Source: Escherichia phage HK639. Taken from it: a stretch of 49,576 nt of DNA. Made by a program: the position numbers and the translations under genes. The notes below the pieces were generated by a model. The model had not been told where the DNA came from, ran no database searches, and was given only the letters and a program-made list of their open reading frames with translations. Where the stretch lies: sequence record NC_016158.1; one strand, 5' to 3'. Shown here one piece after another: positions 2,274 through 49,576 of the stretch (position 1 is the first letter of the stretch; each line of letters starts with the position of its first letter).

Positions 2274-3674
2274 ATGCCTGACATTTCAACACCCAATCTG
2301 GACTATGGGAACATGGTCGAGGCGTGGGATATCAACGATGCCCTGATGGGCGGCACGCTCTATATGCGACAGCTGGGCGAGCAATATCTACCGCGCTGGC
2401 CGAAAGAAGACAAAGAGGACTACAAAAAACGCCTCGCCGTGGCCACGCTTCTGCCAGCCTACGAAGAGACCATTAAGCAAAACATCGGGCGTGTATTTGC
2501 TGAGCCCATTAAGCTTGCCGAGAATGTGCCGGATCAGCTGCGAGAGTATGCGAAAAACTTCGACCTTGAGGGGACGCGCCTGGACGTATGGGCGCAGGCA
2601 TTCTTCGGTCTGGCGATGCAGTATGGCCTCTCCCACGCGCTGGTGGATTATCCCAGGGTGGACACCGAAAAGGTGAAAACCAAAGCGGAAGAGAAAGCTA
2701 CTGGCGCGCGCCCATACGTCACCATGCTCAATCCCCGGCAGGTGATCGGATGGAAGTCGAAAATGGTAGACGGCAAAGTGGTGCTGACCGAGCTGCGTAT
2801 CAAAGAGGTAGTTATCGAGGACGGCGACGACTTCGGGCAGACAAAGGTCGAGCAAATTCGTTATCTGACACCTGGAATGGTGCAAATCTACCGCAAGTCG
2901 AAAGGTATCGATGGGGCGGCGAACTGGGAGAAGTTCGACGAATGGACAACATCTCGTAAGGACATAACACTGGTGACGCTCTACACCAAGCGCACCGGGT
3001 TTATGTGTGGTTCACCTCCACTGCTCAATATGGCTCTGCTGAACATCAAGCACTGGCAGAGTCAAAGCGAGCAGGACAACATTCTGCATGTCGCCAGGGT
3101 GCCGTTGCTCACGGTGTTCGGTTTGGAAGAGGGGCAAGAGCTGATAATTGGCTCGTCTTCAGCTACGTCGTTCACTGATCGGCAAAAGCAGGGTCTGGAA
3201 TACGTCGAGCATACAGGCTCCTCCATCGGTGCTGGTAAAGAGTCGCTGGCAGAACTTGTGGAGCAGATGCGCCAGGCTGGTGCGAAGCTGCTGCGTACGG
3301 AAAACACCTCTACCAAATCGGTAGACCAGACCTCCGAAGAGAAAATGCAGGAGCAGTCACCGCTCTACACCATGGCTACCAGCCTTGAAGATGCGATCGA
3401 CAACATTCTGCAAATCATGGCCGAGTACATCGGCGAGAAAGATGGTGGCAACGTTGATGTTCGCACCGAGCTGGATGTTGAGTCGAAAGAATTCAACCCG
3501 CCTGCTGCACTGGCTATTCAGTCCCTGCGCCAGGGCGGTGACCTTCGCCGTATCGATGCGATTAAAGCCCTGCAAAAACTCAACCTGATTGATGCCGATG
3601 CGGATCCTGATACGGTGCTGAGCGAGTTGCTGGCCGAGTCTGCGTCGCTGAGTGAACCACCGCCGGGGGTGTGA
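2274..3674 (+). CDS. portal protein
   Basis: 466 aa, directly downstream of large terminase and upstream of head morphogenesis gene; size and position typical of portal. Confidence 0.6.
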   Translation: MPDISTPNLDYGNMVEAWDINDALMGGTLYMRQLGEQYLPRWPKEDKEDYKKRLAVATLLPAYEETIKQNIGRVFAEPIKLAENVPDQLREYAKNFDLEGTRLDVWAQAFFGLAMQYGLSHALVDYPRVDTEKVKTKAEEKATGARPYVTMLNPRQVIGWKSKMVDGKVVLTELRIKEVVIEDGDDFGQTKVEQIRYLTPGMVQIYRKSKGIDGAANWEKFDEWTTSRKDITLVTLYTKRTGFMCGSPPLLNMALLNIKHWQSQSEQDNILHVARVPLLTVFGLEEGQELIIGSSSATSFTDRQKQGLEYVEHTGSSIGAGKESLAELVEQMRQAGAKLLRTENTSTKSVDQTSEEKMQEQSPLYTMATSLEDAIDNILQIMAEYIGEKDGGNVDVRTELDVESKEFNPPAALAIQSLRQGGDLRRIDAIKALQKLNLIDADADPDTVLSELLAESASLSEPPPGV

Positions 3675-10003: not shown

Positions 10004-10027
10004 GGGCCCGGTACGCCGGGCTTTTTT
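10004..10027 (+). terminator. rho-independent terminator after major tail gene
   Basis: CCCGG-TACG-CCGGG hairpin plus TTTTTT. Confidence 0.6.
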
Positions 10028-10140
10028 ATGCGCATCGCACGCGCACATCGAAGAAAGTCTTTCAGCTGTGAGCCTGGGCAAACCGTTAACTTTCGGCGGA
10101 TTTGCCGTGCGACAGGCTCACGTCTAAAAGGAAATGAGAA
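10015..10140 (+). promoter_or_regulatory. conserved leader element, copy A (duplicated at 47237..47378)
   Basis: About 130 nt alignable to the region upstream of the Rha gene: shared GGGCTTTTTTATGCGCATC-CACGCGCA, CTTTCAG, GAGCCTG...CAGGCTCAC inverted repeat and TCTAAAAGG immediately before ATGAAT. Confidence 0.6.
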
Positions 10141-25938: not shown

Positions 25939-26006
25939 TGTGTTAAATGGTGCTCTACGTTCTTCTAAGCCGTAGGTCGTAGGTTCGAATCCTACAGGGC
26001 GTGCCA
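25939..26006 (+). other. tRNA-Arg(UCU)-like 3' segment ending in CCA; candidate attP core
   Basis: Anticodon-loop-like CTTCTAA, T-arm GTAGG-TTCGAAT-CCTAC, acceptor AGGGCGT-G-CCA; no matching 5' acceptor strand upstream; 15 nt from int stop. Confidence 0.55.
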
Positions 26007-26021
26007 TTTAAAAACAGTCGC

Positions 26022-27185
26022 TTACGCCAGTTTCAAGCCAGCCTGATTTTCTCCTTGTGTCGTATTTGTGTCATGGTTGCCAAAAATGGCATCAATTTTC
26101 CGTGCGTGTTCGCTTAAGTGGTTCGGTGCCAGGTGAGCGTATCGACGTACCATTTCGATGGACTCCCAGCCGCCCATTTCTTGCAGAACTGACAACGGAA
26201 CGCCGGACTGAATTAACCAGCTCGCCCAGGTATGCCGGAGGTCATGAAAACGGAAGTCTTCTATACCCGCTCTTTCCAGTCCAATGCGCCAGGCGACATT
26301 GTCATCCACTCGCATTTTGCGGACAGCCGGAGTGACGGTTTTATCCGGGCGCGTTGATGGCTTCGTGTGAACGAATACCCACCTGGAACTTTTCCCGATC
26401 TGATCCCTTAACACCCTGCATGCGGTATCATTCAGAGCCACGCCGATAGCCTTGCCCGCCTTCGCGTTCTCCGGATTTACCCATGCAACCTTTCTCTGCA
26501 TATCGACCTGCTGCCACTCCAGATCAATGATGTTGGAGCGGCGCAGGCCGGTTGCCAGTGCAAATATCACCACCGGCTTTATCGACTCCGGCATGCAGGA
26601 GATAAGCCGTTCTGCCTCGTCCCTGGTCAGCCATCGGATGCGTTTGCTGATCGGCTTTTTCGTTTTTATAACCGGGGCCGTTTTAATCCAGCCCCAGTCA
26701 TTAGCCGCAGCCTTGAACAGAGATCGCATGAAAGAAAGGTGCTGACTCTTTGTGGCCTGGCTTACCGGTTTCTCAACATACGGAGGCGGTTCCTTCCCCC
26801 GGCGTATAGCCGCGTCCCTGCGCGACTCCCAGACCTGAATATGCTTACGGTTGACCATCTTCGAAACAGCCTCATGAACCTGATCAGCTGTGATGGTTGA
26901 AATATCCCGGCCGGAGAAATGCCGCAGGAAATATTCGATTTTGGTCTTATCGTCATCGAGTGACCGCTTATGCTCCTTCTCACGGAGCCACCTGATGCAA
27001 CATTCCTCAAACGTCCTCGTCGGTAGTTCCCCAATTTTATCCACCCGCCACGCTTCAGCCTTCAGCTTGTCGTGCAGCTCCTGCGCTTGTTTCTTGTCCC
27101 CCGTACCAAGAGATCGTCTAATTCTTTTCCCTGACGGCGTAACGAAATGACAGTGCCAGACGCCGCCTCTGAGGGTGATTGACAT
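26022..27185 (-). CDS. int: tyrosine integrase
   Basis: 387 aa; C-terminal catalytic signature [39 protein letters not shown] (R..H..R..Y). Confidence 0.9.
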
Positions 27186-33693: not shown

Positions 33694-33763
33694 TGGTGGA
33701 GTGCTCCGGATTCGAACCGAAGTTTTCATGGGTGATCAGTCCATGCAGGCCCAGCCACACCCC
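33694..33763 (-). other. tRNA-like element (T-arm, acceptor 3' strand, CCA) of non-canonical structure
   Basis: Minus strand reads GGGGTGT...TTCGG-TTCGAAT-CCGGA-GCACTCC-A-CCA; 5' GGGGTGT can pair with 3' GCACTCC via two G-U pairs; only 35 nt between, so no canonical D/anticodon arms. Confidence 0.3.
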
Positions 33764-43767: not shown

Positions 43768-44265
43768 ATGAAACTGGAATTAACCAACGACCAACATCAA
43801 TGGGTAGACCAGTGGCTCCAGTTGTGGGGCGCATGGTGCCAGACCGGCAAGATTGATAAAGCGATGATCAACATGATTGCCAGATTCATGGCTACCGTCG
43901 AGCCCCAGCAAGCATCACGGCCGGTATGTAGTGATGATGACGGAATGCTCATTGATGCTGTCATTCGCCACTACCTGAAGAATGTGGATGAAAATGCCTG
44001 GCGGGTTATCTTCGCCTACTATGTCTGCAACTCCAGCGAGATCCGAATTGCATCATGGCAGCATGCAGTAAGTAAGCCTCGCCTTATGAAGACGCGTGGC
44101 GGAAATCAGTACAAACACCCAAGCATCTCGACAATCCGTAGAGAGGTGAAGCAAATCATCAATGCTTCATTGTTCTGTTTATACCAACCGCTTCAAAATG
44201 CGTTTAACGATCGCGAAAATGTGAGGAAAGTTGCAAATAAATCACACAACGTGCTTGCAATTTAA
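43768..44265 (+). CDS. Q: late gene antiterminator Q-like protein
   Basis: 165 aa; last gene before tRNA/terminator region and lysis cassette; Cys/His residues. Confidence 0.6.
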   Translation: MKLELTNDQHQWVDQWLQLWGAWCQTGKIDKAMINMIARFMATVEPQQASRPVCSDDDGMLIDAVIRHYLKNVDENAWRVIFAYYVCNSSEIRIASWQHAVSKPRLMKTRGGNQYKHPSISTIRREVKQIINASLFCLYQPLQNAFNDRENVRKVANKSHNVLAI

Positions 44266-44330
44266 TGAACAAATGAGCAAACTAATTCGTATATGTTGCC
44301 ATTGTTGTGTGTAACATGAATAAATTCCAA

Positions 44331-44357
44331 GCCCCGCCATCGTGCGGGGCTTTTTCG
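44331..44357 (+). terminator. rho-independent terminator downstream of Q
   Basis: GCCCCGC-CATCGT-GCGGGGC plus TTTTT. Confidence 0.65.
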
Positions 44358-44362
44358 TTTCA

Positions 44363-44437
44363 GGGTCAGAAGCACAGCGGTTGTGCGTTCGGCTGTTAAC
44401 CGAATGGTCGAAGGTTCGAATCCTTCCTGTCCCGCCA
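44363..44437 (+). tRNA. tRNA-Asn (anticodon GUU), phage-encoded, one U-U mismatch in acceptor stem
   Basis: Manual fold: acceptor GGGTCAG/CTGTCCC, D-stem GCAC/GTGC, anticodon stem TTCGG/CCGAA with loop CTGTTAA, T-arm GAAGG-TTCGAAT-CCTTC, discriminator G, CCA. Confidence 0.6.
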
Positions 44438-44442
44438 ATTCT

Positions 44443-44517
<75 letters not shown>

Positions 44518-44703
44518 GTTTAAGCTTTTCGGTCTGCGATGATGGGGTCCCCGGAGTGACTGAAAAGCGACCTAGTTTTGAATGGGCGCTGCTTTTTGCA
44601 AAATTGCTGTGTGAAAATGCTGACCTTTGGGTTCAGCGCTCATCCAAAAGCATCTCGTTAAAATCCAGTTAACCTCGGGTGGTTTGTTGGGTGAGGTGCC
44701 TCA

Positions 44704-44728
44704 AATTCAAATAGCCTCGCTTCGGCGA
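44704..44728 (+). terminator. rho-independent terminator
   Basis: CCTCGC-TTCG-GCGAGG plus TTTTTTC. Confidence 0.65.
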
Positions 44729-44776
44729 GGTTTTTTCATTTGTAAGACAACCATCAGGAAGCAATGGCTAATCTCA

Positions 44777-44806
44777 TTGACTGCAGGAATAAGTTCGGCG
44801 TAATTT
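44777..44806 (+). promoter_or_regulatory. candidate late promoter (pR'-like): TTGACT-18 bp-TAATTT
   Basis: -35 TTGACT and -10 TAATTT resemble recalled lambda pR' hexamers; about 170 nt upstream of a strong terminator. Confidence 0.35.
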
Positions 44807-44952
44807 ATTTCTGTGGTGAATCCTTTCTAAGCGAAAGGGCGTTCCAGCCAACTGCTATCTGCAGGTATGCGCGCGACTTTGCTGGCTGGAGTAGAGTCAC
44901 CGGGAGGCACCCGGCACCATGACAACAACAATACAGTTTCAAATTCCTTGAG

Positions 44953-44981
44953 AGCCTGCCGTAAAAAGCAGGCCTTTTTTT
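44953..44981 (+). terminator. rho-independent terminator (tR'-like candidate)
   Basis: GCCTGC-CGTAAAAA-GCAGGC plus TTTTTTT. Confidence 0.6.
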
Positions 44982-45136
44982 ATGAAATTGCGAACTGCTG
45001 CTACGCTTGAAAAGTGGGTTGAAGATAACTGCCTGATGGTTCTCCTGAACCATAGTGAATCAGCCTGATACTGTCTCACTCTGGTCAGTTAGCAAAACTC
45101 ACGACTACCTACCTTACTTACTAATAGTCACTCATT

Positions 45137-45165
45137 AGCCCGCCTTCAAAAGCGGGCTTTTTTTA
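45137..45165 (+). terminator. rho-independent terminator upstream of holin gene
   Basis: GCCCGC-CTTCAAAA-GCGGGC plus TTTTTTT. Confidence 0.6.
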
Positions 45166-45216
45166 TCTCCCCTCAATTTTTCTGAGAGGATTCGCAGCAA
45201 TAACAGAGGGGGCGTA

Positions 45217-45606
45217 ATGTCCGATCCATTAACCGGCACTGGTGCAGTTCTCGGGGGCGGCCTGTTGGGCTCAGTCCTGTACGGTGTCTTTACTCATACA
45301 GATTTCGGCGTGGTGTTTGGAGCGTTTGGTGGTGCGGTGTTTTACGTCGCGACAGCTGCAAACCTTACGCGTGCTCGCCTGGCTGCATATTTTCTGACTT
45401 CATTCATTGTTGGAGTGCTAGGCGCCGGGTTTGTTGGCTCATGGCTAAATGCTGCCTCGAGTTATGAAAAACCACTGGATGCACTCGGAGCAGTGATTCT
45501 GTCTGCGCTGTGTATAAAAATCCTAACTTTTCTTAATAACCAGGATTTGAACAGCCTGTTCGGCTTTTTCTCACGGTTACGCGGAGGAGGGGGGAATGGT
45601 AATTGA
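45217..45606 (+). CDS. holin (multi-TM membrane protein)
   Basis: 129 aa with several Gly-rich hydrophobic helices; first gene of lysis cassette. Confidence 0.6.
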   Translation: MSDPLTGTGAVLGGGLLGSVLYGVFTHTDFGVVFGAFGGAVFYVATAANLTRARLAAYFLTSFIVGVLGAGFVGSWLNAASSYEKPLDALGAVILSALCIKILTFLNNQDLNSLFGFFSRLRGGGGNGN

Positions 45607-45874
45607 CCCGTCAGCTGTCTTTAATGCGTTTATCTGCTCGGTGATCGTCGTCGTTCTGATGTTCTACCAGCGCCATGGTGCCCGGCACCGTCCTTTCATC
45701 TCAATCCTGGCGTATATAACCATCCTGGTTTACGCCGTAATCCCGTGGCAATTCATCTTCGGCCTCTATCGTGACTCCAGTTGGCTGGTGGTGGTGGCAA
45801 ACCTCCTGATATGCGCAGCTGTTATGAAGGTCCGGGGAAATCTGGCGCGTCTGGTTGATCTTCTGAGGCACTAA
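45596..45874 (+). CDS. holin/antiholin-like membrane protein
   Basis: 92 aa, three hydrophobic segments; between holin and endolysin. Confidence 0.5.
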   Translation: MVIDPSAVFNAFICSVIVVVLMFYQRHGARHRPFISILAYITILVYAVIPWQFIFGLYRDSSWLVVVANLLICAAVMKVRGNLARLVDLLRH

Positions 45875-46503
45875 TGAACCAAATACTATTTCAAAAGGCG
45901 GCAGGTATAAGCGCCGGTCTAGCCGTGCGCTGGTTTCACTATATCGATGCTGCAATGAAGGAATTCGGCATAACCGCGCCGCTCGATCAGGCCATGTTTA
46001 TCGCGCAGATGGGCCACGAGTCCGGCGGCTTCACCCGGCTGGTGGAAAACCTGAACTATTCGGCAGAAAACCTGGTATCTACGTTTGGCAAGCATCGCAT
46101 TACTGCACAGCAGGCCGCCGCACTCGGCAGAACGGCAACGCAACCGGCAAATCAAAAAGCGATAGCCAATCTGGTTTATGGCGGTGAGTGGGGCAAAAAG
46201 AACCTGGGCAACCAGGTTGCTGGTGATGGCTGGAAATATCGCGGTCGCGGCCTGAAGCAAATCACCGGGCTCAGCAATTACCGCAACTGTGGCCACGCGC
46301 TGAAGTTGGACCTTGTAACCCAGCCTGAATTGCTGGAACAGGATGAATATGCTGCGCGCTCCGCTGCATGGTTCTATGTCTCGCACGGATGCCTGCTCCA
46401 TTCCGGCGACGTGGAGCGCGTGACGCTGCTTATCAACGGCGGCCGTAACGGGCTGGAACAACGGCGCACCCTGTTTAACCTGGCGAAATCTGTGCTGGTG
46501 TGA
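45874..46503 (+). CDS. endolysin, glycoside hydrolase family 19 (chitinase-like)
   Basis: FIAQMGHESGGF and YRGRGLKQITG motifs typical of GH19 phage endolysins. Confidence 0.75.
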   Translation: MNQILFQKAAGISAGLAVRWFHYIDAAMKEFGITAPLDQAMFIAQMGHESGGFTRLVENLNYSAENLVSTFGKHRITAQQAAALGRTATQPANQKAIANLVYGGEWGKKNLGNQVAGDGWKYRGRGLKQITGLSNYRNCGHALKLDLVTQPELLEQDEYAARSAAWFYVSHGCLLHSGDVERVTLLINGGRNGLEQRRTLFNLAKSVLV

Positions 46504-46510
46504 GGTCACT

Positions 46511-46786
46511 ATGGGGTTTGAAACTTTAATTGGTATTGCTGCAGCAGTCATTGCCGCCATCGCTGGCGCTTTCGGCCTGGGCCATATTCGCGGCTCAAGC
46601 AAAGCAGAAGCAAAAGCAGTTCAGCAGCGCACCGAAGATAACGCAGCTGCAACGGTCGCAGCAGCAGATCGCCGTGTAGAGACAACGAAAGAGGCCAGCA
46701 ATGTACAGCAAACTGTTAACCATATGTCTGGCGATGATGTTGATCGCGAGCTGCGCGAAAACTTCACCCGCCCCGGTGGTGATTGA
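46511..46786 (+). CDS. i-spanin (Rz-like)
   Basis: N-terminal TM helix (LIGIAAAVIAAIAGAF) then charged coiled-coil-like region; embeds o-spanin start in another frame. Confidence 0.6.
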   Translation: MGFETLIGIAAAVIAAIAGAFGLGHIRGSSKAEAKAVQQRTEDNAAATVAAADRRVETTKEASNVQQTVNHMSGDDVDRELRENFTRPGGD

Positions 46787-46928
46787 TACGGGCTGCCTGT
46801 GGACCCGGATTATCTATCTGACAAACCACGATATCGACGTTATGGACCGCCAGACGAAGAAAGACATCCTGGCGCATAACAAAGCGTGGCAGGCGAACTG
46901 TCAGAAACCAACAGAGAAAAAAATATGA
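46701..46928 (+). CDS. o-spanin (Rz1-like lipoprotein), overlapping i-spanin
   Basis: 75 aa; lipobox LIASC; starts inside Rz-like gene in +1 frame. Confidence 0.6.
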   Translation: MYSKLLTICLAMMLIASCAKTSPAPVVIDTGCLWTRIIYLTNHDIDVMDRQTKKDILAHNKAWQANCQKPTEKKI

Positions 46929-47206
46929 GCGAAGCTAAACCGCAGGACGGCACTACCGTTAAAGGCTATCGAACCTTATCGCCTGGTGATATTGAGCGTA
47001 TGAATCGCCTGAAGGGTGTCAGCCGACACTTCTGTAATTTACATGATACAGAACGTGAGCATGTCAACGATGAGTTATCTGCTACCGGCAACCACTCAGC
47101 TGAAGCAAACGAAGCTGCCCGCTGTCTCGCTATTGCGCGCACCAAAATGCAGGAAGCCTGCATGTGGGCATGTCGTGCCGTAGCCCGTCCAGACGCTGAC
47201 TGTTAG
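46925..47206 (+). CDS. hypothetical protein following lysis cassette
   Basis: ORF 46886..47206; ATG 46925 overlaps o-spanin stop (ATGA); 93 aa. Confidence 0.45.
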   Translation: MSEAKPQDGTTVKGYRTLSPGDIERMNRLKGVSRHFCNLHDTEREHVNDELSATGNHSAEANEAARCLAIARTKMQEACMWACRAVARPDADC

Positions 47207-47223
47207 CCAAAAAACAAACATAG

Positions 47224-47249
47224 AGCCTCGCAATAGCGGGGCTTTTTTA
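47224..47249 (+). terminator. rho-independent terminator
   Basis: GCCTCGC-AATA-GCGGGGC plus TTTTTT. Confidence 0.6.
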
Positions 47250-47378
47250 TGCGCATCTCACGCGCATCTCAACGAGAGCCTTTCAGTAAGCGAGCCTGAG
47301 AAATGCCGTTATAGGTGGCGACCTCTCTCGGGCGGCTTTTCTGTGAGACAGGCTCACTTTCTAAAAGGTAAAGACGCT
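47237..47378 (+). promoter_or_regulatory. conserved leader element, copy B (paralogue of 10015..10140)
   Basis: Alignable to copy A; contains direct repeat GCGCATCTCA x2 and inverted repeat GAGCCTG...CAGGCTCAC; ends TTCTAAAAGG before ATGAAT. Confidence 0.6.
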
Positions 47379-47903
47379 ATGAATAATCCGTCAGTTATTC
47401 CGGCCTTTGACTTCCGAGAAATGGTGCAAGCCAAAAACGGAGAGGTCGTTACCACATCCCGAAAAGTTGCCACGTACTTCGGAAAGCGACATGGTGATGT
47501 GCTCAGGAAAATCGAGCAGGTTAAGGCCGATTGCTCAAGTGAGTTTAGCCAACGCAATTTTGCGTCGGCCGATTATATCGATGAGCAGGGTAAGGTTCGC
47601 CCGATGTATAGCCTGACGAAAGATGGCTGGATCATGGTTGTGATGGGGTTCACCGGGAAAGCTGCTGCGGCTATCAAAGAAAGCTACATTTCAGCTTTCA
47701 ATTGGATGTCTGAGCAACTTAGCCGTCGCCTGGCCATGGGTGAAGAAATGCAGCACCGCTACGCCATCAAAGAAACGCGCTCAAAGTTGAAGGGCACGAT
47801 CGGCAGCCGGTTGATGAACGAGCGGAAGAAAGAGAAACGTGTTCTGGCTGTGGAGCATGAGCACATCATGCAGGTAACGCAGCCTGAATTGCTGATCGAA
47901 TAA
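47379..47903 (+). CDS. rha: Rha-family phage regulatory protein
   Basis: ORF 47343..47903 with start at Met13; N-terminal VVTTSRKVATYFGKRHGDVLRKIEQ signature of Rha domain. Confidence 0.7.
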   Translation: MNNPSVIPAFDFREMVQAKNGEVVTTSRKVATYFGKRHGDVLRKIEQVKADCSSEFSQRNFASADYIDEQGKVRPMYSLTKDGWIMVVMGFTGKAAAAIKESYISAFNWMSEQLSRRLAMGEEMQHRYAIKETRSKLKGTIGSRLMNERKKEKRVLAVEHEHIMQVTQPELLIE

Positions 47904-47958
47904 GCCATTACAGAAGCTCCTTAATAGAGAAAACCAGAGCCATGAAATAGCATGGCCT

Positions 47959-49029
47959 ATGCCGGTTTTATTTGAAATATTTATCATCGCTTGTGGTGCA
48001 ATTATGAAAGGCTTATTTATCCCTGGTGTGACTGAGCTTGGCGCATCATCAGATAGTTTTCCATCCGGCATAGTTATTCCCGGTGCTAATGTTATGACGC
48101 TGCCGCCTGGCGAGTGGGTTGACCTTAGCGATATCGATCTTACCTCCTCTGCACTGGATTATCGGGTTTCGTTCAGCTGCGCAAGCAACCATGCATACTA
48201 CTCAGCTGACGGAACTATTCAGTTCGCTGCACCTGACGTATGGCCGCTTGAGTACCGAAATGGTGTGGCAGTTGGAAGGCATGAGCCTGAAGTGCAGGCG
48301 ACCAACACCTACTATACGGGGGGGGTAGGGGCAGTGCGTGCGGCAATAAGTAATTCCGCAGAAAGAATACTGAATACCCCGACATTCAGGCTTACAGAAT
48401 CTAATTTGGAAGGGCAACACTACGCTGCATGTCCGCAGAAAGTTACGGCGGGAAAGAAGTACAGCTTTAGCGGTTTTATTCAAAAAACAGAGAAGTCGAG
48501 AGGGTATGCATTTATCCTTTTAGCGCACCAATTGATTGTTGATGCGCAGATTTTATCTGTAATAAATATCTCTGATGCGTCAGTGTCATTCACCGGTATT
48601 TCTGATGGACTCACTACAACCGCAGAGTTTATCTCTCCCGGCGTAATACGGTTTTCCGGGACTGTTATTGCGACAAAATCCGTAGAGTCACCTTCCTATA
48701 TAATCTATATGGGGCCATCAACCAGTATCACACCCGGTGGCGCAACCTACGTTGGAGATTCATCATATTCTCTGGAGTTTGCAGCACTGCAGCTTGAAGA
48801 TAATCCCTGTTCAACATCACCAATCATTGCATCCAGCGCTGCTGCAACACGATCCAAGGCTTTTGCGAACATCAAGAACCCCAGCAGAATTGCAACCTCT
48901 GTGCGTTTGCACTATAGCGACGCAACGACCAAGCAAATCGATTTTGGCGGTGCAGAAGAGGTTGAAATACCAGCATCAACGACTGACTGGGGTAAGCGCT
49001 ACATCCAACGAATCGAGTACATAAGATAA
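47959..49029 (+). CDS. hypothetical protein (356 aa; start may be internal Met at 48004), Ser/Thr/Gly/Ala-rich
   Basis: Long ORF after Rha, AT-richer 5' region, no clear RBS; composition reminiscent of fibre or surface-binding proteins. Confidence 0.4.
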   Translation: MPVLFEIFIIACGAIMKGLFIPGVTELGASSDSFPSGIVIPGANVMTLPPGEWVDLSDIDLTSSALDYRVSFSCASNHAYYSADGTIQFAAPDVWPLEYRNGVAVGRHEPEVQATNTYYTGGVGAVRAAISNSAERILNTPTFRLTESNLEGQHYAACPQKVTAGKKYSFSGFIQKTEKSRGYAFILLAHQLIVDAQILSVINISDASVSFTGISDGLTTTAEFISPGVIRFSGTVIATKSVESPSYIIYMGPSTSITPGGATYVGDSSYSLEFAALQLEDNPCSTSPIIASSAAATRSKAFANIKNPSRIATSVRLHYSDATTKQIDFGGAEEVEIPASTTDWGKRYIQRIEYIR

Positions 49030-49313
49030 TGAGCAGGCTGACATATTTACGATTCCCTGATGAGGCTACTGCGAGAGCAGCCACTGGTTGGTGGTCTGAG
49101 GGGGCTGGATGGGCAGTACCGACTAAGTCTATTCAGTTTTCTGTGCGGGGCGTTCTGTATAACAGTGACGGTGAATATGACGAGGCCGGAAATGTGATAA
49201 AGGAGCCGACCCTAAAGGACGGTTATCACATTGATGTTATCTATGGCCTCATACCTGAAGCTGCGCAGAAATTTATCATCAATCCATCAACACCTGAATA
49301 CGTACTGGCGTAG
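49029..49313 (+). CDS. hypothetical protein
   Basis: 94 aa; start overlaps preceding stop. Confidence 0.4.
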   Translation: MSRLTYLRFPDEATARAATGWWSEGAGWAVPTKSIQFSVRGVLYNSDGEYDEAGNVIKEPTLKDGYHIDVIYGLIPEAAQKFIINPSTPEYVLA

Positions 49314-49322
49314 GGGGGGCAC

Positions 49323-49559
49323 ATGGCAACAGAAAGAATGACAATCGGTAGTGAGCCAGTTCAGATAACTGACGGCACTAACAGCGCCCTAATTTCAGTT
49401 TTTGGCGGCTACCCTATCAGTTTTGCTGATTCAGATGTTGAGCCTGACAAATCAGTGGGCGACATCATCAGGGATAAGATGGTGGTAAACCCGCCATTAA
49501 AAGTTTGGCTGTGGTCTGATGGGCCAGGGCCTCATGAAGTTGCAGTAACCCGATGGTAG
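49323..49559 (+). CDS. hypothetical protein
   Basis: 78 aa ORF ending 17 nt before window end. Confidence 0.4.
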   Translation: MATERMTIGSEPVQITDGTNSALISVFGGYPISFADSDVEPDKSVGDIIRDKMVVNPPLKVWLWSDGPGPHEVAVTRW

Positions 49560-49576
49560 CCATGAGTGATACCACC

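Follow-up and report, generated by a model that had tools for sequence, protein, structure and literature searches.

The region studied here, positions 47379-49576, forms the end of the sequence record of the temperate Escherichia phage HK639 (NC_016158.1; 49,576 nt, one strand), and the whole of that record is called the window below. The + strand of the region carries four open reading frames, of 174, 356, 94 and 78 aa. The original prediction placed these genes (47379-49559) between the spanins and the small terminase of a circular map, and it was made to depend on contiguity with the terminase end. The arrangement was confirmed in the related IMG/VR contig L011, where the last base of the window directly precedes its first base (...gtagccatgagtgataccacc joined to acgctgtggtagcagaatgg...). 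Read across this junction, the distance from the stop codon of the 78-aa gene to the ATG of terS is 67 nt; the first 17 nt of this + strand spacer are positions 49560-49576, and the spacer continues at positions 1-50. It contains just an imperfect inverted repeat (GATACCACC/TGTGGTAGC); nothing was found in it that speaks for or against the cos/pac region suggested to lie there. The integrase gene and an att-like tRNA fragment are located mid-window; therefore, the window follows the gene order of the virion genome, not that of a prophage. Upstream of the region, Q (43768-44265) is followed by an STnc100-like pR′ region and then by the lysis genes. A consensus scan of the + strand from 44200 to 49576 found no sigma-70 consensus promoter.

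The first gene of the accessory stretch (46925-47206, + strand) encodes a 93-aa protein that matches the Pfam model PF24729 (Acb2_Tad1_hairpin) with 63.1 bits (cut-off 27), and in the PDB it matches 8h2j ("p26", E 3.9e-8) and T4 Vs.4 (7uq2, E 7e-6). The similarity to these anti-CBASS sponges (PDB 8H2J, 7UQ2) covers the full length of the protein, with no difference noted, and by this homology the protein is a new member of the Acb2 family of cyclic-nucleotide sponges. The gene was overlooked in the original prediction; it is part of this accessory stretch, a short distance upstream of the coordinates 47379-49576. An intrinsic-terminator-like hairpin follows it at 47224-47248 (+ strand) and can be read in the sequence as GCCTCGC-AATA-GCGGGGC plus six T; an automatic terminator scan missed this hairpin because of a G-T pair in the stem.

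The next gene (47379-47903, + strand) encodes a 174-aa Rha-family phage regulatory protein, as had been predicted. The family models were matched above their curated cut-offs, with 97.8 bits for Phage_pRha (PF09669; cut-off 29.9, 5.4e-28) and 114.9 bits for TIGR02681 (cut-off 45.95, 1.7e-33), and phrog_518 was matched at 1.3e-77. At the DNA level, the gene shares 79% identity with phi80 rha and 92% with its counterparts in phages phiv205-1 and 2B8. The original phenotype of rha, described in phi80 and P22, is the inhibition of phage growth in IHF-deficient hosts. The sequence ahead of the gene is indeed duplicated: 47236-47386 is 72% identical to 10015-10148 over 151 nt (E 3.7e-14), and the second copy is also preceded by a similar terminator-like hairpin, near 10005-10028 (repeat family D2). 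The further proposal that this element drives rha was not supported, and its candidacy as a promoter was dropped after the consensus scan found none; the element is a structured 5′ leader.

In the RNAalifold consensus, this leader (47251-47378, + strand) contains a short hairpin (GCGC/GCGC) followed by an imperfect one of approximately 90 nt (47278-47369), at the base of which CCUUUCAG pairs with CUAAAAGG, the Shine-Dalgarno region. The minimum free energy of the single sequence is -48.2 kcal/mol (z -2.4). A covariance model identified 22 copies in the window and related loci, with compensatory changes at 16 of the 24 pairs compared with 7.7 in shuffles, and 91% of cells are paired compared with at most 58% in slid controls. 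Rfam searches with the leader matched no family, whether judged by gathering scores or extended to E<=10. On the strength of this covariation, the leader is identified as an RNA hairpin that sequesters the ribosome-binding site of rha. By hiding this site, the long hairpin probably keeps Rha from being made until it is unfolded or cleaved, by analogy with the RNase III processing of the lambda N leader.

Downstream of rha is an AT-rich spacer (47904-48003, + strand) in which a hairpin is found at 47938-47957. Its G+C content is 39% compared with 52.5% window-wide, in agreement with the predicted AT-rich start region of the large gene. The 98% DNA identity to E. coli prophages starts at the Rha stop codon, and the sequence comparison identifies the spacer as the left recombination boundary of a cassette whose first gene encodes the large protein. 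This reading frame is open from 47959 (47959-49029, 356 aa). It was correctly noted that no clear ribosome-binding site precedes 47959, but the start appears to have been misplaced. The protein most likely begins at the Met codon at 48004, which agrees with the family consensus and the RefSeq gene calls, and would then have 341 aa (48004-49029, + strand). The reported Ser/Thr/Gly richness is present but mild (27.2% vs. 22.7% in other structural proteins). A lipoprotein signal, MPVLFEIFIIAC, was considered for the 356-aa frame and ruled out: the apparent lipobox is within the upstream extension, which is unconserved beyond near-identical DNA, and the family starts with MKGL. At the conserved start codon, neither a signal peptide nor a transmembrane segment was found.

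The large protein had been listed as unknown, and this no longer holds after profile and fold searches. Positions 26-307 of its profile align with residues 165-455 of Sf11 gp17 (PDB 9occ, E 1.5e-41), a distal-tail-protein appendage, and the profile also matches Rcc01080, the head-spike fibre of RcGTA (6tb9_F3, E 5.6e-12). NCBIfam NF048003 matches residues 116-299 of the 356-aa frame with 46.8 bits (cut-off 36). In the 341-aa protein, N-terminal G-L-x-I-P-G...L-G peptide repeats are followed by a Gly/Ser linker and a conserved frame (residues about 40-100 and 260-341) enclosing a variable central domain. The N-terminal motif M-K-G-L-F-I-P-G-x-x-x-L-G is conserved in the family and is duplicated in many members, and the invariant residues of the frame include R54, E83, Y84, G87, G91, R92, H93, P95 and E96. 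The central domain resembles the beta-jelly-roll of the CBM4/16/22/29 type, and we consider it a predicted carbohydrate-binding fold with moderate model confidence (pLDDT 40-85 in the central domain).

Two small genes follow the fibre gene. The 94-aa gene (49029-49313, + strand; phrog_18574) overlaps it at TAATG and is translationally coupled to it. Homologues of the 94-aa protein are 64-99% identical; the gene occurs in 13 of the 48 standalone-fibre loci and is limited to a subfamily in which the fibre carries the N-terminal motif only once. Searches of Pfam, NCBIfam, PDB and PADLOC returned no match to this protein. The 78-aa gene (49323-49559, + strand) has a strong ribosome-binding site, GGGGGGG, and belongs to a family of 27 cluster representatives in all, every one of 75-84 aa. 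PDB profile searches with both small proteins gave noise alone, such as the TPR repeats of kinesin light chain, and an AF2 model of the 78-aa protein built from four sequences had a pLDDT of 41. Neither small protein resembled an RcGTA-type base in sequence: neither had an NCBIfam match at E<=0.01, including to the base family NF048002, on which the positive control scored 66 bits, and hhalign of a Rcc01079-like family, based on a gene recovered from R. capsulatus SP108, against both families gave probabilities of <1%.

The three genes, which the original prediction listed as unknowns in another cargo hotspot, do lie in such a hotspot, but the comparison of loci indicates that they are one conserved, co-inherited cassette that moves between otherwise unrelated phages. 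A gene of the 78-aa family (75-84 aa) directly follows the fibre gene in 38 of 48 standalone viral loci and in none of the three loci with a fused fibre. Five TerL types are represented among the loci in which the cassette separates the lysis genes from the terminase genes, and the terminase/portal types downstream of it number at least five. The 78-aa protein is itself divided: residues 1-25 travel with the fibre cassette and residues 26-78 with the terminase/head module. The C-terminal part is 100% identical within a TerL type and 50-58% identical between types, a range that holds for all 16 cross-type pairs. The window and L011 share a TerL type and identical 78-aa proteins, and the middles of their fibres are just 27% identical; the window and L009 have fibre middles that are 97% identical, different TerL types, and 78-aa C-termini that are only 50% identical. 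The binding domain of the fibre assorts independently of the terminase/head type. Since the 78-aa gene borders directly on the head module, the association of its C-terminus with TerL could reflect nothing more than physical linkage.

The contents of the stretch between the spanin genes and terS differ among related phages, as expected of the variable hotspot that had been proposed. L012, L013 and L048 contain both Acb2 and Rha with its leader; L010, L011 and L015 have neither, and in these three the spanin genes lead directly to the fibre gene. Rha, KilA-N, an SDH protease or glycosyltransferases occupy the site in other related phages. Acb2, Rha and the fibre trio would represent three independent mobile modules of a late-operon hotspot. 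Lambdoid phages carry morons, a concept reportedly due to Hendrix and co-workers, at the lysis/cos junction, for example bor in lambda and rha in P22 and phi80. The present stretch resembles these in its genomic position, in its presence or absence among relatives, and in its terminator-bounded units within a late operon; a terminator-like hairpin lies upstream of the leader. The fibre trio differs from these morons: it falls within a family of virion proteins instead of being a host-fitness gene, and it lacks any promoter of its own that could be detected. No cultured lambdoid phage in the phage collection has the fibre cassette.

Three known systems place homologues of the fibre on virus particles. 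The RcGTA head spike consists of the base Rcc01079 and the fibre Rcc01080 (PDB 6TB9; Bardy et al., 2020, PMC7296036; PMC10218006). The N-terminal residues 2-10 of the fibre are anchored to a pentamer of the 84-aa base, and the fibre binds the capsule; the spikes are located at capsid vertices, and glycan binding raises adsorption (PMC7296036; PMC10218006). The fibre domains are homologous, as the NF048003 and profile scores indicate, and the proteins are of similar size (325 aa in RcGTA vs. 341 aa here, with partners of 84 aa vs. 78 aa). Both fibres have a short hydrophobic/Gly N-terminal peptide, a flexible linker and a lectin-like beta domain, and the genes of both stand apart from the main structural ones. 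However, the RcGTA motif is (I/L)-G repeated five times instead of G-L-x-I-P-G...L-G, the conserved N- and C-terminal frame segments of the present family are missing from Rcc01080, the gene order is reversed, the 94-aa gene is additional here, and Rcc01079 has no detectable similarity to the present partner proteins. 

The closest homologue over the whole conserved length is the appendage of Sf11 and the Kagunavirus phages, with 24-29% identity to Kagunavirus proteins. Residues 165-455 of Sf11 gp17 (PDB 9OCC) form a large appendage that projects from the distal-tail-protein ring, and the authors declare its function unknown (PMC12724387). This appendage is exposed on the virion and is fused to the ring domain and to a tailspike-adaptor helix, with no 78-aa gene after it. 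In contrast, the present protein has no distal-tail ring domain and begins at the appendage; it is free-standing, has an N-terminal peptide of its own, and is encoded together with small partner genes upstream of terminase. Genes of the Sf11 gp17 type directly follow the tape-measure gene; here, the fibre gene is found on the stretch from rha to terS, and 33 kb separate it from the tape-measure gene.

In virions of the Pantoea phage vB_PagS_AAS23, LC-MS/MS detected ORF83 by 10 peptides (35% coverage) and ORF82 by 3 peptides (38%) (PMC8004638). The product gp83 is a standalone fibre homologue of 291 aa (phrog_11600; BFVD E 2.5e-18), and its gene is directly followed by that of the 81-aa gp82, which has the same position as the 78-aa protein and reaches only a marginal score against its profile (E 0.018, from a small search). 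Both genes are remote from the structural cluster and adjoin the genome end that abuts the packaging genes. AAS23 differs in being a lytic T1-like phage without the 94-aa gene and without a Rha or lysis context. Distant homologues of both the fibre and its small partner have been found in purified virions.

We consider it probable that the trio is an accessory virion module that adds a lectin-type fibre to the particle and is housed in a hotspot with Acb2 and a hairpin-led Rha. The basis of this reading is the homology, fold class, synteny, mosaic pattern and genome contiguity described above, and from these we infer the virion association in the present phage. Although the region as a whole is a cargo hotspot, the trio within it is most likely an accessory module of the virion that is expressed late, rather than cargo of a miscellaneous kind. 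The original prediction would have been refuted if these proteins were conserved core structural components; the large protein does belong to a virion-protein family, which touches on this condition, but the trio appears to be accessory and not core. The 341-aa protein, which lacks a signal peptide and is encoded downstream of Q and pR′ in the same orientation, would be made late with the structural proteins. It would be a monomeric or oligomeric fibre in which the conserved frame carries an exchangeable jelly-roll that may recognize a host surface polysaccharide. Docking would occur through the short, repeated hydrophobic/Pro/Gly N-terminal peptide together with the 94-aa and 78-aa proteins, and the latter may act as an adaptor, with its N-terminal 25 residues matched to the fibre and its C-terminal 50 to the particle type. 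Attachment might be at the capsid vertices, as in RcGTA, or, as in Sf11, at the tail tip. Phages with head proteins that are not detectably homologous carry this same fibre (98% DNA identity), which is awkward for a specific capsid-binding role. In the E. coli prophage with the same fibre, the head genes are non-homologous and the tail tip is 35-50% identical, a comparison that discriminates neither the head nor the tail-tip site. By analogy with RcGTA head spikes, reversible glycan binding may raise adsorption or shift host preference.

A bolder form of this reading is possible, and we advance it tentatively: the trio might be a plug-and-play adsorption module in which the 78-aa adaptor, its N-terminal third matched to the fibre and its C-terminal two-thirds to the particle type, places lectin fibres, whose glycan-binding domain can be exchanged, on structurally unrelated particles. 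Recombination inside the adaptor gene would then transfer the fibre among lambda-like, HK97-like and other temperate phages of Enterobacterales. If true, this would be the first enteric-phage counterpart of the RcGTA head spike and would account for the Sf11/Kagunavirus appendage and the orphan AAS23 virion proteins gp82 and gp83.

The trio may instead be non-virion cargo, that is, a moron made late or in the lysogen and acting on the cell, either as a polysaccharide-binding or polysaccharide-modifying factor that works with neighbouring glycosyltransferases or in superinfection exclusion or defence. We regard this alternative, with its variants taken together, as unlikely. Consistent with it, Acb2, Rha/KilA-N, the SDH protease and glycosyltransferases use the same site, the cassette is portable across non-homologous head types, most relatives lack it, and it is rare in E. 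coli, being carried by 6 of 5426 complete genomes. The cassette has a 485-aa glycosyltransferase and a 196-aa "glucosyltransferase" as neighbours in 10 loci or more; these genes stand on either side of it and are absent from the window, and they are therefore separate modules. All homologues of known location are virion proteins, the conserved start has no export or membrane signal, the lipobox falls in the unconserved extension, and the cassette has no detected promoter of its own. PADLOC gave no match for the five proteins of the stretch, and the idea of a defence system was dropped.

It is also conceivable, although we consider it improbable, that the 341-aa protein is a virion fibre and the 94-aa and 78-aa proteins are its folding or assembly chaperones, like tail-fibre assembly proteins. 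Small, translationally coupled genes directly after a fibre gene are the usual fibre-chaperone arrangement, the partners do not resemble the RcGTA base, and, in the 78-aa protein, the 25 conserved residues at the N-terminus accompany the fibre. However, AAS23 gp82 is found in virions with 38% coverage, and a chaperone would have no obvious reason for a C-terminal two-thirds that tracks the terminase/head type and ignores the variable domain of the fibre. Finally, it is very improbable that the cluster is a functionless set of decaying tail-gene remnants at a recombination hotspot, with chance or pseudogene reading frames: the fibre gene is fragmented in L031 and L062, and RefSeq leaves the 94-aa and 78-aa frames uncalled in E. 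coli YZMc10-2, but the frames here are intact, tightly packed and coupled, conservation at the protein level persists down to 25-35% identity, with invariant residues, and the gene order is maintained in dozens of loci across different phage lineages.

If the virion module does decorate the particle with a swappable lectin, it would be a compact determinant of host range or adsorption that, being encoded outside the tail gene cluster, would be overlooked by host-range prediction and phage engineering. The cassette connects three observations for which separate papers gave no explanation: the Sf11 appendage, AAS23 gp82/gp83 and the label "head spike fiber domain" that RefSeq gives to prophage genes of enterobacteria. 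The split 78-aa protein provides a testable model for the transfer of accessory virion parts among phages whose particles differ. The rha leader, a structured RNA with good support and no Rfam family, stands ahead of regulator genes at the hotspot. On the other side of the junction, TerL has no match in Pfam or NCBIfam, and its nearest relatives, at approximately 50% identity, are lytic siphophages of other genera.

The window holds the whole genome of a temperate phage and begins near its small terminase gene, terS (51-701), which is followed by TerL (698-2269) and the portal gene (2274-3674). The 3′ end of a tRNA is copied over 35 nt at 25975-26009, next to a minus-strand ORF of 387 aa (26022-27185) assumed to encode an integrase; the two are probably attP and the integrase gene, and their position in mid-window indicates that the gene order is that of the virion. 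The Q antiterminator gene (43768-44265) is followed by tRNA-Asn (44363-44437, +), an STnc100-type element (44780-44985, +; Rfam match of 52.6 bits, above gathering) and the lysis cassette (45217-46928), which comprises two holins, a GH19 endolysin and spanins. The pR′/late-leader region between Q and the holin, where the tRNA and STnc100 lie, also carries several terminator-like hairpins, and a second tRNA gene, tRNA-Ile (33694-33763, −), is located in the early region. On the same strand, 3′ of the lysis cassette, are found in order the Acb2 gene, a terminator-like hairpin, a structured RNA leader, rha, an AT-rich spacer, the fibre ORF and two genes of 94 and 78 aa. In the IMG/VR viral contig L011, the final bases of the window run straight into its first bases; therefore, in the real molecule 67 nt separate the 78-aa gene from terS. 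The original prediction placed these genes between the spanins and the small terminase provided that the window is contiguous with its terminase end, and the direct junction in L011 bears out both. Nothing in the 67-nt spacer identifies either cos or pac, so the proposal of a cos/pac region at 49560-50 gains no support.

The region is indeed a cargo hotspot, and it holds three separable modules: Acb2, the leader with Rha, and the trio of fibre, 94-aa and 78-aa genes. The trio had been predicted to be cargo; it does form a module of the hotspot, but the best explanation for it is a portable accessory virion module that is expressed late and consists of a lectin-type fibre and small proteins that would dock it. 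The fibre ORF (47959/48004-49029, +) starts at the Met encoded at 48004 according to the family consensus and the RefSeq gene calls, which gives 341 aa. The proposed profile and fold searches were productive for this large protein, which scores above the cut-off of NCBIfam NF048003 ("phage head spike fiber domain"). Moreover, a profile of 46 fibre sequences matches residues 165-455 of PDB 9OCC chain C, Shigella phage Sf11 gp17 (E 1.5e-41), and the RcGTA head-spike fibre Rcc01080 (E 5.6e-12). In gp17, a distal tail protein, the authors modelled residues 3-165 only, and the remainder is a large appendage of a function unknown to them (PMC12724387). In Kagunavirus the homologous region forms the C-terminal part of a 463-aa protein whose gene comes immediately after that of the tape measure; in Pantoea phage LIET2 it is the C-terminal end of a protein with a structural annotation. 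In the AF2 model of the fibre (pLDDT 76), the frame (residues ~40-100 and 260-341) is confidently predicted and the central beta domain less so; in the family alignment the frame is conserved and the middle variable, as is usual for a receptor-binding protein.

The known relatives provide experimental data. In RcGTA, an 84-aa jelly-roll base protein forms a pentamer on the capsid pentons that holds residues 2-10 at the N-terminus of a single 325-aa fibre, and the fibre binds the capsule (PMC7296036; PMC10218006). Furthermore, virions of Pantoea phage AAS23 contain gp83 (10 peptides, 35% coverage) and the 81-aa gp82 (3 peptides, 38% coverage), both encoded outside the structural cluster (PMC8004638). 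We found that gp83 is a standalone fibre homologue and that gp82, the product of the next gene, is only a weak match to the 78-aa profile (E 0.018). The trio shares a related fibre domain with the RcGTA head spike and the Sf11 appendage, and differs from them in its partners and architecture. We believe that the trio is rather probably virion-associated and glycan-binding.

The 94-aa gene (49029-49313, +) overlaps the fibre stop codon (TAATG), and the 78-aa gene (49323-49559, +) has a G7 ribosome-binding site. The fibre gene stands alone in 48 of 56 IMG/VR loci; a 78-aa-family gene lies directly 3′ of it in 38 of these 48, and the 94-aa gene is also present in 13, whereas the fused or long fibre versions (n = 3) have neither. 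Presence of the 94-aa gene coincides exactly with a single G-L-x-I-P-G...L-G motif at the fibre N-terminus; where the gene is missing, the fibre has an additional I-x-x-P-x-x-P-[VMI]-I-G repeat at its N-terminus. The 78-aa family has few members: 1.84 billion proteins yield 27 cluster representatives, each 75-84 aa long and none of them fused. Searches with the two small proteins gave no Pfam, PDB or PADLOC match and, in sequence and profile comparison, no detectable relationship to the RcGTA base. Weak tblastn matches of the 94-aa protein (32-37% identity, E 1e-5 to 4e-4) occur in the T4-like cyanophages S-TIM54 (166791-166976) and S-WAM2, well beyond the cassette's enterobacterial range. In two viral contigs (L031, 594-1734; L062, 7908-8835) the fibre gene is split into several ORFs, which suggests occasional cassette decay or sequencing errors.

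The cassette lies between the lysis and terminase genes of five TerL types: that of this window, lambda Nu1/A, two HNH/Terminase_4 types and a Kyle-like type. Among seven close, non-redundant loci, the first 25 residues of the 78-aa protein are 84-100% identical throughout, whereas residues 26-78 show no difference between loci that share a TerL type and drop to 50-58% identity in each of the 16 cross-type pairs. The fibre central domain assorts independently of TerL type: it is 27% identical between the window and L011, which share a type, and 97% (window and L009) or 100% (L012 and L013) identical between loci of different types. In addition, four E. coli prophages share 98% DNA identity with the window over a stretch that begins at the rha stop codon and ends at codon 38 of the 78-aa gene. 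In the E. coli prophage compared outside this stretch, the head genes have no detectable similarity to those of the window, and the tail tip (M, L, K, I, J) is 35-50% identical. The sequence pattern of the 78-aa protein, with a conserved N-terminus and a type-specific C-terminus, fits an adaptor whose two ends would face different partners; linkage to the neighbouring head module could also account for the match between the C-terminus and TerL type. We hold the adaptor model in full only tentatively.

The rha gene (47379-47903, +) scores beyond the curated cut-offs of both family models and is 79% identical in DNA to phi80 rha. It was predicted to be driven by a duplicated leader. The duplication is real: the 128-nt leader (47251-47378, +), between the terminator-like hairpin and rha, has a copy at 10015-10148 (72% identity). 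However, no sigma-70-like promoter was found in the leader, which instead folds into an imperfect ~90-nt hairpin whose predicted basal helix pairs CCUUUCAG with CUAAAAGG, the Shine-Dalgarno region. Eight copies served to build a covariance model, which detected 22 copies, two in the window and 20 in related loci (L001-L063), 5′ of Rha, KilA-N and other genes. In an alignment that had been fitted to this model, compensatory double changes are seen at 16 of 24 pairs, compared with 7.7 in shuffles (none of 500 reaches the observed value), and 91% of cells are paired against ≤58% with partners slid. No Rfam family matches the leader. We read it as a translational-control or processing element and not a promoter; the basal helix would sequester the Shine-Dalgarno sequence, and RNase III or a protein factor are candidates for opening the hairpin. 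Many unrelated phages, HK620, HK106 and Salmonella S107 among them, share parts of the leader at 97-98% identity. The second leader copy in the window (10015-10140) precedes a 226-aa gene (10141-10821, +; phrog_29765) with a lambda-J-type tail-tip domain (Phage_Tail_Tip, PF09327, 2.2e-9), inserted behind a terminator and this leader between the major tail protein and tail chaperone genes; this gene, too, resembles a moron-like insertion.

Rha and Acb2 each add an ordinary new member to a known family. Directly 3′ of the o-spanin gene, the Acb2 gene (46925-47206, +) encodes a 93-aa protein that its sequence identifies as an anti-CBASS cyclic-nucleotide sponge of the Acb2/Vs.4 family; the mechanical ORF opens at GTG 46886, and ATG 46925 is the likely start. 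At the same hotspot in the prophage of E. coli YZMc10-2 (L001, 5917-7742), an SDH-family Clp-fold serine protease and a KilA-N protein, with a divergent leader copy in front, replace Acb2 and Rha. Two genes absent from the window, for a 485-aa glycosyltransferase (phrog_1579) and for a 196-aa "glucosyltransferase" (phrog_854), recur beside the fibre cassette, on either side, in other loci (L004, L013, L032, L037, L042 and L049-L051).
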